Made by a program: the position numbers and the translations under genes | Assembly (NCBI GenBank): GCA_033722135.1 | Contig: JAWVZO010000001.1 | Coordinates: forward strand, 1-54,173 | Reading direction: 5' to 3' | Length of the DNA stretch: 54,173 bases | From: Gammaproteobacteria bacterium | Lineage (GTDB): Bacteria; Pseudomonadota; Gammaproteobacteria; QNFN01 | Shown here: positions 32,048 through 37,271 of the stretch, one piece after another | How positions within the stretch are numbered: the stretch's first letter is position 1 | Layout: every line of letters starts with the position of its first letter | Notes under the pieces: model-generated | Told to the model about the DNA's origin: nothing | Database searches by the model: none | The model's input: only the letters and a program-made list of their open reading frames with translations

Positions 32048-33121
32048 TCAGGCGAGCCAGCGCTCGAGGTCGGCGGCCACCGTCCCGGCGCCGTCCGGGA
32101 CCGGCCGTGGTGGCGCGGGCTGCTCCCAGAGCGCCTCGAGCGCCCCGGCGAGATCGCCGCTGCGCGCCTGCGCCAGGCTCACCTCGATGCACCGGCCGTG
32201 CCGCTTCAGCCAGTCGAGCAGGGCCGCCGACTCGGGCCATCCGCCGCGCGGCAGCGCGAGGACCGGCAGCCCGTGGCACGCCGCCTCGGCGAAGAGGCCG
32301 TAGCCGGGCTTCGCGAGAAGCGCGTCGCAGGAGGCGACCAGGTCCAGGAACGGCATCTCCAGCCGGTCGAACGGGTGGCTGTCGGCGCGCGTCACGCCCC
32401 AGTCGGCCTGGACCAGCCAGTGCACCCCGGGGACCGACGGCCACGCCTCCATCGGCAGGCGGGTCGGCACGCCGCCGAGCGCGACCAGCACCAGCCGCGC
32501 GCCCGGCGCGACGCCGAGCCGCTCGCGAAGCTCCCGCCCGCGCGGGCGGCCGAGGCCGGCGATCGGCCCGACCTCGACCGCGTTGGCCAGTTCGGGCATC
32601 GGCATGGCCGGCGCCGGGCGGTAGAAACAATGCGCGGCACGGTAGGCGGCGAGGATGGTCTCGCGCAACGCGGCGTCCTCCGGACCGTGGCAGTAGGCGG
32701 CATGGATCGCGCCCCAGTGTAGCGAGCAGACCGCGGCGGCCGGCAGGTCGACCCGTGCCGCCGCGGCGAGCGGCAGGTAGGGCACGTCGGCGAGCACCAG
32801 GTCCGGCGCGGCCTCCGCGAGTCGCCGCGCGGCCGCCTCGACCCGGCGCTCCAAGGCGGCGTGGAAGTCGCGGTAGGCGGCGCAACTCGCCGCTGCGTCG
32901 ACCTCCAGCGCATCGCGCATGCGCATGCCGACGTCGGGTCCGGACGCGACGTGGTCGAACGGCGGCGCCAGGTAGCGGGACGCCAGCAGGGAGCCCGGCA
33001 AGGCCGTCTCGACCGTCAGGCGCAGGTCGGGCCGGCGCGCGCGCAGCGCGGCGACGATCGGTGCCGCCTGGGCCGCGTGTCCGAAGCCGTGCGCCGACAG
33101 CGCGAGCCAGAGGTGCGCCAC
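32048..33121 (-). CDS. GT-B fold glycosyltransferase-like protein (MurG/GT28- or MJ1255-like), uncharacterised
   Basis: GTG start at 33121, 8 nt after the upstream stop. Sequence features: VAHLWLALSAHGFGHAAQAAPIVAALRARRPDLRL, LVLVALGG, CDALLAKPGYGLFAEAACHGLPVLALPRGGWPE. The family call is at fold level only. Confidence 0.55.
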   Translation of the reverse strand: MAHLWLALSAHGFGHAAQAAPIVAALRARRPDLRLTVETALPGSLLASRYLAPPFDHVASGPDVGMRMRDALEVDAAASCAAYRDFHAALERRVEAAARRLAEAAPDLVLADVPYLPLAAAARVDLPAAAVCSLHWGAIHAAYCHGPEDAALRETILAAYRAAHCFYRPAPAMPMPELANAVEVGPIAGLGRPRGRELRERLGVAPGARLVLVALGGVPTRLPMEAWPSVPGVHWLVQADWGVTRADSHPFDRLEMPFLDLVASCDALLAKPGYGLFAEAACHGLPVLALPRGGWPESAALLDWLKRHGRCIEVSLAQARSGDLAGALEALWEQPAPPRPVPDGAGTVAADLERWLA

Positions 33122-33129
33122 CGCGGGGA

Positions 33130-34164
33130 TCAGCGCGGCGCGAGCGTCGCCGGGTCGACCCGCTCCATCAGGTAGCAGAGGCAGTCCTGGCGGATGATCT
33201 CGGTGTTTACGGTCAGCATCGACGGCATCACCGGCTGGCGGGTCACGAGGCGGTCGCCGTCCACGTCGAAGTAGGCTCCGGTGACGTCCCTCCCGTCGAT
33301 GTCCCGCGCCGCGACGCACGCCCCGCCGTCGCAGCGGACCCAGCCGAACTGGGTCCCGGGCGGCAGCTCGCGGAAGTTCAGGTGGTCGAGGTCGCGCACC
33401 AGGTGGAGGCCCCGCTCGACCGGCTCGAAGTCGAACGGGATCCGCTCGGGCACCTTGACCACGGCTACGGTGTGGAACAGGTCCATGTCGTGCGGGGCGA
33501 CCGGGTGGTCGGGAACCTCGACCAGGTGCAGGCAGGCGTCGAGGTACCGCTCGGCGTGCTCGACACCGAGCGCCTGGCCGACCTGACCGCACTCCAGGGT
33601 CACCGCGGGGCAGATCTCGCCGAGCGCCATCGACTGCACACCGGCCGGGCGCGTGAAGTAGACCACGGTGCGGCCGAACAGCGTGGCGAGCTGGAAATAA
33701 CGGTCGTCGATGTAGTTGACGCAGGCGTAGTGGGGATTGAGTCCGGAGTTGTTGTGGACGTCGACGCTGGCGAACAGCCCGCGAGCGCGCAGCAGGTCGA
33801 CGACCTCGCGCATCATCCCCGCCTCGGGGCTGTCGCGGTCCTCGCCGCCGGGCCAGATGCGGTTGTAGTCGGGCTGGCCCGCGAGGCGACGCACGCCGCG
33901 GCGCGCCGCGGCGACGTTGCCGACGAACAGCGCGAGGCCACGCGGCAGCGGCTTCTCGCCGCCGCCGGGCGCGTAGCGGCGCAGCAGCGACTGCACCGCC
34001 AGCAGCCCGGTGGTCTCGTTGCCGTGCAGCAGCACCGTGACGAACAGCGCCGGTTCCCGCCGCCCCCCGAGCAGGAACAGCGTCGGCCCCGGCACGATGC
34101 GGTGCAGGTCCCGCGCGTCGCAATCGAGGAATCCCTCCGGGAGCCGTTCGGCGACGGTCAGCAT
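33130..34164 (-). CDS. AstE/AspA-family zinc hydrolase (succinylglutamate desuccinylase/aspartoacylase-like, M14-related)
   Basis: 344 aa with VTVLLHGNETTG (HxxE zinc motif) and ASVDVHNNSG (third His ligand). The ATG at 34164 lies 1 nt from the upstream stop. Confidence 0.7.
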   Translation of the reverse strand: MLTVAERLPEGFLDCDARDLHRIVPGPTLFLLGGRREPALFVTVLLHGNETTGLLAVQSLLRRYAPGGGEKPLPRGLALFVGNVAAARRGVRRLAGQPDYNRIWPGGEDRDSPEAGMMREVVDLLRARGLFASVDVHNNSGLNPHYACVNYIDDRYFQLATLFGRTVVYFTRPAGVQSMALGEICPAVTLECGQVGQALGVEHAERYLDACLHLVEVPDHPVAPHDMDLFHTVAVVKVPERIPFDFEPVERGLHLVRDLDHLNFRELPPGTQFGWVRCDGGACVAARDIDGRDVTGAYFDVDGDRLVTRQPVMPSMLTVNTEIIRQDCLCYLMERVDPATLAPR

Positions 34165-34165
34165 G

Positions 34166-35587: not shown

Positions 35588-35595
35588 GGCCGACC

Positions 35596-36267
35596 TCAGC
35601 CCTGTCCCGCCGCCAGCGCGGCGTCGAGCTCGCGCAGCCGTTCCGGGGTGCCGACGTCGGCCCAGGCACCGAGCCAGTGCTCGCCGGCGACCGCGTCGCG
35701 GGCGATCGCCCGGCGAAGCAGCGGCGCGAGCGGGAAACGCCCGGGCGTCTGTCCGGCGAACAGCTCCGGGCGGTAGACCCCGATCCCGCTGTAGGTCCAG
35801 CCGGCATGGTCCCGTTCGCGCACCCGGCCGTCGACCAGCGCGAAATCGCCCAGCGGGTGGTGCGGAGGGTTGTCGACCAGCACCAGGTGGGCGAGGCCGT
35901 CCGGACTGGCCGGCAGGCGATCGTAGGGGTAATCGGTCCAGACGTCGCCATTGACCACCAGGAACGGCGCGTCGCCGAGCAGCGGCAGGGCCTGGAAGAT
36001 GCCGCCGCCGGTCTCGAGCGCACCCACGGGCTCCGGGGAGTAGCGGATGCGCACGCCGTAGGCGGCGCCGTCGCCGAGGGCCTGCTCGATCCGCTCCCCG
36101 AGGTGGGCGTGGTTGACAACCACCTCCCGGATGCCCGCCTCGGCGAGCGCGACAAGGTGATGCCCGATCAGGGGCCTGCCGCCGACGGGCAGCAACGGCT
36201 TGGGCGTGGCGTCGGTCAGCGGCCGCATCCGCTCGCCGCGGCCGGCGGCCAGGATCATCGCCTTCAC
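35596..36267 (-). CDS. murU: N-acetylmuramate alpha-1-phosphate uridylyltransferase
   Basis: The GTG start overlaps the amgK stop (GTGA). Sequence: [37 protein letters not shown].... Conserved amgK-murU pair divergent from lptD. Confidence 0.85.
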
Positions 36268-37271
36268 CGGTCGACCGCCAAGGCACGCCCCTCGAGTGGA
36301 GGGAGCTCGGCGAGCAGCCGGTGCAGCGCGCCGAGCTCGGGGTAGTCGGCGGCCACCTCGATCGCGTAGTCGAGCACCCGCGGCAGGTCATCGAGGTAGC
36401 CCGGCTTGCCGTCGCGGTGCCAGAGCCGGGCGAAGATGCCGAGCACCTTCAGGTGGCGCTGCAGGCCCATCAGGTCGAACCAGCGCAGGAAACGGGCCTC
36501 GTCGCGTTCGCGGAGCACACCCGCCTGCAGCGCCCGCGCGTGGTAGCCCAGCGCCCAGGACTCGACCCGCTCGCGCGGCCAGCGCACGTAGCAGTCGCGC
36601 AGCAGGGAGACCGGATCGTAGGTCACCGGCCCGATCACCGCGTCCTGGAAATCGAGGATGCCGGGGTTGTCGACCTCGACCCGCATCAGGTTGCGGGAGT
36701 GGTAGTCGCGGTGCACGGCGACCTGCGGCTGCTCGAGCGCCGAGGCGACCAGCACCTCGAAGGCGGCCTCGAGCTCGGTGCGCTCGACCGCGCCGGGCGG
36801 ACGGTCGAGGTGGCGGTCGAGGAACCAGGCGGGGAACAGCGCGAGCTCGTCGAGTAGCCGCCGCCGGTCGTAGGGCGGCAGACCGCCGGGCACCTCGGGC
36901 GCGCTGGCCTGCAGCACCAGCAGCGCGTCCAGCGCGTCGCCGTAGAGCCGCTCGGCGCTCGCCTCGTCGAGGATGTCGAGGTAGAGGGTCTCGCCGAGGT
37001 CGCCGACCAGCAGGAAGCCGAGGTCGTAGTCGACGGCGAGAATCTCGGGGACGTTCAGGCCGATCGCGCGGAGCGCGCGGGCCACGTGGACGAACGGGCG
37101 GCTGTCCTCGTGCTCGGGCGGCGCATCGACCGCGATCGCCGTCCCCCCGGCATGGTGCACGCGGAAGTAGCGCCGGAAGCTGGCGTCCTCGGAGGCCGGG
37201 GTGAGCGAGGTCTCGCCCAGGTCCGCCGCGTGCTGCAGCCAGTCGCGGAGTTGCTCGATCCGTTGGGTCAT
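36264..37271 (-). CDS. amgK: Anomeric MurNAc/GlcNAc kinase (aminoglycoside phosphotransferase fold)
   Basis: 335 aa: [10 protein letters not shown]...[11 protein letters not shown]...[23 protein letters not shown].... Divergent from lptD, as in pseudomonads. Confidence 0.85.

Follow-up and report, generated by a model that had tools for sequence, protein, structure and literature searches.

Which genes of a tightly packed bacterial array belong together, and what might they do for the cell? The question is raised by a 54,173-nucleotide (nt) stretch of DNA from a Gammaproteobacteria bacterium (GenBank assembly GCA_033722135.1, contig JAWVZO010000001.1; hereafter the window), in which five minus-strand genes lie head to tail: amgK, murU, a ligase with the glutamate–cysteine ligase (GCL) fold of the GCS2 superfamily, an AstE/AspA-type zinc hydrolase and a GT-B-like glycosyltransferase (GT). 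An earlier note on this DNA had read the array as a candidate conjugate pathway, with bacillithiol and mycothiol as its models. We identified the ligase and the hydrolase as a conserved unit, sometimes fused, across several bacterial phyla. Our best explanation, which we find plausible but hold tentatively, is that these two enzymes form a two-gene attach-and-release module.

The evidence for the pair comes from comparison across genomes. A scan limited to a single genome for each species yielded at least 598 ligase relatives, of which we analysed the best 80 loci with flanks of up to 10 kb; their apparent sources include Chromatiaceae, Sedimenticolaceae, Ectothiorhodospiraceae, methanotrophs, Nitrosomonas, Thiobacillus, Accumulibacter, Aquabacterium, Kordiimonas and a metagenome-assembled genome (MAG) of Rhodospirillaceae. 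The hydrolase gene lies directly downstream of the ligase gene in 71 of the 80 loci, is absent from six and could not be evaluated in three (71/77 evaluable), and this adjacency spans apparent Gamma-, Beta- and Alphaproteobacteria. The gap between the two genes has a median of about 21 nt, many pairs overlap, and in one locus (L075; L numbers are our locus labels) the two are fused in frame. The family is large: an exhaustive hidden Markov model search of a library of 1.84 billion representatives (clusters at 50% identity) gave 3,581 cluster representatives at E ≤ 1e-3 and 1,066 at E ≤ 1e-30. Among the best 150 family members there are ligase-hydrolase fusions of about 825 amino acids (aa; fused representatives P0362, P0371 and P0378), ligases carrying a CBS pair (about 640 aa), one ligase-CBS-hydrolase protein (P0507, 965 aa) and one ligase-CBS-HIT protein (800 aa), all architectures being confirmed by Pfam. 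The CBS-form ligases that carry a name come from MAGs of Bacteroidia and Myxococcales. When a CBS-form ligase was used in a metagenome scan (83 loci), an AstE-type gene stood directly downstream in 27 of them and was the sole recurrent neighbour. The functional tie between ligase and deacylase that the earlier note had suspected is therefore borne out by both adjacency and fusion, and its statement that no pathway of such composition has been described agrees with our literature searches, which found no account of the ligase-hydrolase pair.

Could the arrangement be nothing but inherited housekeeping synteny, devoid of functional meaning? In the window it is flanked by the classic housekeeping blocks lptD-surA-pdxA and dacA-ybeD-lipB, one at each end, and blocks of this kind persist without shared function. 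However, the pair is adjacent across phyla in unrelated flanks and is repeatedly fused, and we give this explanation hardly any credence. For amgK, the GT and a peroxiredoxin-like gene behind it, mere synteny is possible. The pair occurs without murU or amgK in apparent Beta- and Alphaproteobacteria and in the CBS-type loci of Bacteroidia and Myxococcales; no recurrent flanking family was found in the 31 loci without murU directly upstream, and clustering of open reading frames (ORFs) together with Pfam counts on 109 flanking ORFs revealed no conserved neighbour beyond housekeeping synteny. Two variants of the unit were observed. Three loci (L162:3596-8604, L163:5534-10546 and L176:1955-6965) carry, ahead of a single AstE-type gene, two tandem CBS-fused ligase paralogues that share 42-49% identity with the query; this suggests a heteromeric ligase or two substrate specificities. 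Five others (L034, L050, L063, L065 and L079, apparently from Pseudomonadales, Azotimanducaceae or Azophilus) combine a ligase 46-52% identical to that of the window with an AstE-type partner of only 34-35% identity and may represent a divergent sub-type of the pair; L050 and L065 additionally have an amino-acid permease upstream.

Within the window, the array (Table 1) is as compact as the earlier note had described: reading the minus strand over 31380-37420 confirmed every junction, with a 4-bp overlap between amgK and murU followed by gaps of 8, 1 and 8 nt, an operon-like layout. The TGA of amgK overlaps the GTG of murU in the GTGA at 36267-36264. The end of murU at 35596 is followed by an 8-nt spacer with GAGG and the ligase GTG at 35587; the ligase TGA (34168-34166) is separated by the single base 34165 from the hydrolase ATG at 34164; and the hydrolase TGA (33132-33130) is followed after 8 nt by the GT start, a GTG at 33121, the GT ending at 32048. 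The GTG start of the ligase is supported by its N-terminal residues G2, E4, I5, F10, D14 and F15, invariant in 56 homologues, and that of the GT by homologues of 355-360 aa that cover 100% of the query. No promoter or hairpin had been noticed between the genes, and our scan of 31300-37500 agrees: its only sigma-70-like site (0.1 expected in shuffles) lies upstream of amgK, none falls inside the array, and the scan turned up no T-run terminator either. Behind the GT, the fold of the 106-nt spacer is not superior to that of shuffled versions (z = -0.47). Upstream of the ligase, neither the window nor 12 loci without an adjacent murU contain a riboswitch or other Rfam element. Since the module follows murU and amgK in the window, all these genes are probably transcribed from the amgK promoter. 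As the earlier note had described for amgK, lptD-surA-pdxA lies divergently upstream, while dacA, a D-amino-acid aminotransferase gene, ybeD and lipB converge on the array from downstream. The same lptD-surA arrangement is found in L010, L012, L021, L030, L039, L040, L052, L075 and L080, as well as in L095, a close relative of the window.

Table 1. Features of the array and its surroundings in the window. MurNAc, N-acetylmuramic acid; GlcNAc, N-acetylglucosamine.
Feature	Position	Strand	Remarks
amgK-like anomeric MurNAc/GlcNAc kinase, 335 aa	36264..37271	(-)	PF01636 APH, E 4e-31; NF045759 best match
murU, MurNAc-alpha-1-phosphate uridylyltransferase, 223 aa	35596..36267	(-)	NF045761 equivalog
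Core gene 1: GCL-fold (GCS2 superfamily) ATP-dependent carboxylate-amine ligase, 473 aa	34166..35587	(-)	GTG start
Core gene 2: AstE/AspA-type zinc amidohydrolase, 344 aa	33130..34164	(-)	Starts 1 nt after ligase stop
GT-B-like glycosyltransferase, 357 aa	32048..33121	(-)	GTG start; weak PF13528, TIGR00661 and TIGR04516 matches
AhpC/TSA-type peroxiredoxin-like protein, 176 aa	31411..31941	(-)	PF00578, E 2e-13; 106 nt downstream of GT
Sigma-70-like promoter match, TTCTCA-17-TAGAAT	37329..37357	(-)	amgK/lptD divergent spacer, upstream of amgK
lptD (then surA, pdxA)	37351..39663	(+)	Divergent from amgK; housekeeping anchor of the synteny block; listed ORF has a signal-peptide-like start at M51

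Both members of the pair are deep, uncharacterised branches of their superfamilies with intact catalytic residues. Family calls were made by Pfam and NCBIfam scans judged against curated cutoffs; the assignments of the earlier note stand at the superfamily level for the ligase and the hydrolase, whereas the profile match of the GT is weak and below threshold. The ligase matches PF04107 GCS2 with E 2e-9 (37.6 bits, cutoff 21). Invariant among its homologues are G46-F-E48-L-E50, which is the GhExE signature, E86, H194 and the R-x-E-x-R strand R321-E323-R325; this signature, the glutamine-synthetase/GCL fold and a conserved Arg/Glu/His catalytic set are the marks of the carboxylate-amine ligase/GCS2 superfamily (PMC2588565). 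AlphaFold models of ligase and hydrolase were built on 54-56 homologues. The ligase model (AlphaFold2; predicted local distance difference test, pLDDT, 94) retrieved YbdK and the yeast, plant and E. coli GCLs in Foldseek at 12-17% identity with probability 1.0, and PafA/Dop and glutamine synthetases as more distant matches. At the level of sequence, the ligase falls below the cutoff of every characterised GCL subfamily model (E. coli GshA, YbdK TIGR02050, EgtA TIGR03444 and PRK13517), with best scores of 32 bits (cutoff 409), 20 bits (cutoff 176) and 17 bits, the last being a faint match to EgtA; no specific NCBIfam family fits it. Searching the PDB with the single sequence and with a profile reached no solved structure, and an hhalign comparison with E. 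coli YbdK was insignificant (probability 6.7%). Full-length homologues of 36-39% identity exist in Streptomyces, Nonomuraea and Tsukamurella.

Source annotations call these ligases 'glutamate--cysteine ligase', and the simplest alternative to a dedicated module takes this label at face value. The ligase would be the housekeeping GshA of lineages that lack the E. coli-type enzyme, and the hydrolase an accessory or an unrelated co-transcribed gene. The GCL fold with its complete catalytic signature, the high conservation and the housekeeping synteny are all in its favour. Additionally, Allochromatium vinosum makes gamma-Glu-Cys and glutathione, with GshA assigned to Alvin_0800 by annotation alone (PMC4213376), which would count here if Alvin_0800 belongs to the ligase family. 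On the other side, no NCBIfam model for GshA, EgtA or YbdK comes near its cutoff, sequence profiles fail to reach any solved GCL, and no homologue of gshB, gshA or ybdK lies within 10 kb in about 178 loci (about 2.5 Mb). Moreover, the family also occurs in Bacteroidia, Myxococcales and Actinobacteria, which to our knowledge are not classic glutathione producers, and many Betaproteobacteria and Pseudomonadales already have another type of GshA. Even if the ligase were just GshA, its persistent hydrolase partner and the fusions would still need explaining. We therefore consider a plain GshA unlikely, albeit a serious contender.

The hydrolase is a clear member of its superfamily as well, matching PF24827 AstE_AspA_cat with E 8e-9 (35.7 bits, cutoff 25). 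The HGNE...H motif pointed out in the earlier note is present and invariant among homologues, in which H47, G48, E50, H137, E191 and N101-R102 are all conserved; the roles of these residues (an H-E-H zinc site, a catalytic Glu and an N-R carboxylate clamp) were assigned by analogy, without superposition. Its AlphaFold2 model (pLDDT 94.6) has a two-domain fold and finds AstE (E 6e-14 to 1yw4), aminoacylase 3, aspartoacylase (ASPA) and DoeB in Foldseek at template modelling scores of about 0.55-0.63, with the M14 murein-peptide enzymes MpaA and Csd4 ranking lower. Automatic annotation routinely labels the hydrolase partners of this ligase family 'M14 metallopeptidase' or 'succinylglutamate desuccinylase'. 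Nevertheless, an NCBIfam scan gave no match at E ≤ 0.01, so the protein falls outside the AstE equivalog TIGR03242, and no ast genes were found near the array or in the flanking ORFs.

How could a ligase and an amidohydrolase act together? In the mechanism that we propose, the two, which in Chromatiales-like Gammaproteobacteria lie directly behind murU, would be translationally coupled. The ligase would phosphorylate the gamma-carboxylate of glutamate and couple it to the amine of a small amino acid, with cysteine as the first candidate. At a later stage the hydrolase would take the succinyl-like gamma-glutamyl group off this amino acid, or off a modified derivative, the amino acid presenting a free alpha-carboxylate. 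We assign it this part because of its carboxypeptidase-like N-R carboxylate-binding motif and because its closest relatives deacylate succinyl- or acetyl-amino acids; its structural neighbours include succinylglutamate desuccinylase and aminoacylase 3, an enzyme for N-acylated amino acids. Both substrates, and any participation of MurU, are inferred. The closest precedent is mycobacterial ergothioneine synthesis, in which the GCS2-type EgtA makes gamma-Glu-Cys and, once the product has been S-modified, the amidohydrolase EgtC cleaves off its glutamate (PMC5790434). One member of the ligase family stands in just such a neighbourhood. At L179:2444-10151, the gene for the ligase-CBS-HIT fusion (800 aa) follows bona fide egtB and egtD at a distance of 1.2 kb; a metallo-beta-lactamase-fold gene occupies the interval, and an M20 deacylase gene lies downstream. 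The locus may represent an ergothioneine cluster outside Actinobacteria that has a gamma-Glu-Cys ligase of its own. By analogy, this suggests that members of the ligase family can make gamma-Glu-Cys, and that a ligase and an amidohydrolase can attach and release a glutamyl group.

Several points weigh against an attach-and-release module. The link to ergothioneine comes down to one locus of some 175, to which L051 adds an egtD fragment at a distance of about 8.5 kb. If both enzymes acted on one bond, they would run a futile cycle unless a further step came in between, and no gene for such a step lies nearby. The model leaves the conserved linkage to murU unexplained, and the substrates of both enzymes are putative. 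Finally, the partnership is not universal: the homologues in Streptomyces and Tsukamurella stand alone with no hydrolase beside them, and about two thirds of the CBS-type loci as well as six proteobacterial loci lack an adjacent hydrolase. Food for speculation is a wider view of the module, to which we assign a low probability. The pair would be a widespread, undescribed gamma-glutamyl 'carry and release' system for cysteine or S-modified cysteine, which could underlie a new low-molecular-weight thiol or sulfur carrier in sulfur-oxidising and other environmental bacteria, and which in Gammaproteobacteria would be co-regulated with, or biochemically tied to, MurU-dependent salvage of cell-wall sugars. 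The unidentified thiol of Allochromatium could be one candidate product.

The linkage to murU asserted in the earlier note is real in many Gammaproteobacteria, and often comes without amgK. In the window, murU passes the MurU equivalog NF045761 (323 bits, cutoff 250). The amgK-like protein has the AmgK model NF045759 as its best match but stays below the equivalog cutoff (282 bits against 550); the position of its gene, overlapping murU by 4 bp and divergent from lptD, fits AmgK. Across the 80 loci, murU is frequently attached to the ligase-hydrolase unit, lying directly upstream of the ligase in 48, all apparently gammaproteobacterial. Among these 48, amgK is adjacent to murU in 13, displaced in five and, in 25, not present within the available 2.5-9.3 kb. 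What precedes murU varies among at least eight genes, for example rho, ferrochelatase, gpsA, rhodanese, glutathione S-transferase (GST), PqiA and GGDEF genes; with these in its place, the idea that amgK had merely been missed by tblastn was rejected. Likewise rejected was the idea that the ligase-adjacent murU is a paralogue with another role, as it passes the MurU equivalog cutoff, which is also exceeded by the murU genes adjoining the ligase in five other lineages (311-334 bits). The murU-ligase junction is broken in several Gammaproteobacteria, namely L038, L064 and L086 (Thioalkalivibrio sulfidiphilus); in the last of these (L086:4127-6502) a DsrE-family gene, an extracytoplasmic function sigma factor gene with a putative anti-sigma gene and a small ORF lie between murU and the ligase-hydrolase pair. 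Sedimenticolaceae and relatives (16 loci among L004-L077, e.g. L041:5098-9883) have the order rhlB, trxA, rho, murU-ligase-hydrolase and lack amgK over 9 kb. The rho (17466-18722) and rhlB (19382-20686) genes of the window are found some 14 kb away from its array, so that here the same block has been rearranged.

Such a linkage invites the thought that MurU, ligase and hydrolase form a branch of peptidoglycan salvage. The hydrolase would trim recycled murein peptides in the manner of MpaA or LdcA, and the ligase would re-form a gamma-glutamyl bond (D-Glu to diaminopimelate) or, on the UDP-MurNAc that MurU supplies, the link between MurNAc and peptide. The 48 loci with murU directly upstream, few of which have amgK beside it and which vary so much in what precedes murU, are consistent with this, as are the passing scores of the ligase-adjacent murU genes and the presence of MpaA and Csd4 among the lower-ranked structural matches of the hydrolase. 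However, the pair is equally conserved without murU in apparent Beta- and Alphaproteobacteria and in CBS-type loci, the junction is broken in the three loci named above, no other recycling gene recurs nearby, and the top structural matches are AstE and ASPA rather than MpaA. A salvage branch thus strikes us as quite improbable.

The GT fares differently from the other members of the array. It scores below cutoff with PF13528 (22 bits, cutoff 25) and with TIGR00661 (19 bits, cutoff 196), and its family profile finds in the PDB a GT1 enzyme of the OleD type (oleandomycin) only weakly (E 3e-4) and in the C-terminal domain alone. Its family comprises about 1,500 clusters of 'hypothetical' GT-B-like proteins from Gamma- and Betaproteobacteria. 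The GT gene adjoins the ligase-hydrolase pair in four of the 80 loci (L008, L012, L029 and L048) and in L095, which repeats the whole arrangement of the window, peroxiredoxin included. Elsewhere (L081-L085, L093 and L094) GT homologues are single, in the contexts of U32 peptidase/maf, orn/hemH or parB/atp (atpI), and no ligase, hydrolase or murU was found near them there. The peroxiredoxin-like protein has a conserved position only in L095 and no homologue in the 80 genome loci; it also weakly resembles the 'SelL-related redox protein' family (NF040769; 30 bits, cutoff 120). The GT and the peroxiredoxin are local additions specific to the lineage of the window and lie outside the conserved module, and the trio of GT, deacylase and ligase that the earlier note had taken for a unit does not hold together across genomes.

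This bears directly on the proposal that amgK and murU feed a nucleotide sugar to the GT, while deacylase and ligase build a glycosylated amino acid or low-molecular-weight thiol after the logic of bacillithiol and mycothiol. All five genes are indeed tightly packed, and they are kept together in L095 with the peroxiredoxin downstream; a GT4 gene just upstream of the pair in one unrelated lineage (L096-L099) and the unidentified thiol of a purple sulfur bacterium (PMC4213376) also speak for it. Against this stand the rarity of the GT beside the pair, the GT4 gene being found in only four of the 83 metagenome loci, three of them near-identical, and the occurrence of GT homologues alone in at least three unrelated contexts. 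No BshABC or MshABC family is present, and characterised AstE-type enzymes act on N-acyl amino acids and are not known to act on N-acetyl sugars. A five-enzyme conjugate pathway consequently appears very improbable to us.

The ligase-hydrolase pair remains a solid lead, because it is widespread, fused and mis-annotated. The ligase family is found in chemolithotrophic symbionts, nitrifiers, methanotrophs, polyphosphate accumulators, Bacteroidia and Myxococcales. Should the pair prove to be something other than plain GshA, conclusions about glutathione and thiols in many environmental genomes would be wrong, and a new gamma-glutamyl metabolite pathway would await discovery; if the link to murU is functional, peptidoglycan recycling has an unrecognised branch. 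As for the remainder of the window, a molybdopterin oxidoreductase of 1,058 aa (3018-6194), an AMP-binding enzyme with an AMP-binding_C_2 domain (7787-9121) and a glycogen/maltodextrin phosphorylase (14972-17449) are ordinary by Pfam. No Rfam family reached threshold in the whole window, and at 12418-14362, 20686-22666 and 46356-47514 no ORF passed a crude gene filter based on GC content at third codon positions.

How does the pair compare with known systems? To BshA/BshB/BshC and MshA/MshB/MshC it is linked only by the abstract logic of a GT, a deacylase and an ATP-dependent ligase: all three protein families differ, and the GT of the window is not conserved with the other two genes. The analogy depends on the GT, which fails to co-occur across genomes, and is therefore unsupported. 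YbdK and the plant, yeast and E. coli GCLs, the best structural matches of the ligase, share its fold and the GhExE metal/ATP signature, but only 12-17% of residues are identical, and the ligase is about 100 residues longer than YbdK and has a hydrolase partner. Similarly, the hydrolase has the two-domain fold, H-E-H zinc site, catalytic Glu and N-R clamp of AstE, aspartoacylase, aminoacylase 3 and DoeB; it differs in matching no NCBIfam model and in having a ligase as its partner, and it lacks the arginine-succinyltransferase or ectoine-degradation context of AstE and DoeB. The EgtA/EgtC system also combines a GCS2-superfamily ligase with a dedicated amidohydrolase, and one member of the ligase family lies beside egtB-egtD. 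However, the ligase of the window is no EgtA equivalog (17 bits, cutoff 371), EgtC is glutamine-amidotransferase-like whereas the hydrolase is of the AstE/AspA type, and, with one or two exceptions, the roughly 175 loci lack egtB and egtD. RimK, an ATP-grasp glutamate ligase, adjoins an AstE/AspA-family gene in Gammaproteobacteria and is thus alike in pairing a ligase with a hydrolase; it differs in that the ligase of the window has the glutamine-synthetase/GCL fold and no retropepsin-like partner was seen beside the pair. Finally, PuuA and PuuD provide a further precedent for the logic of a ligase working with an amidohydrolase.

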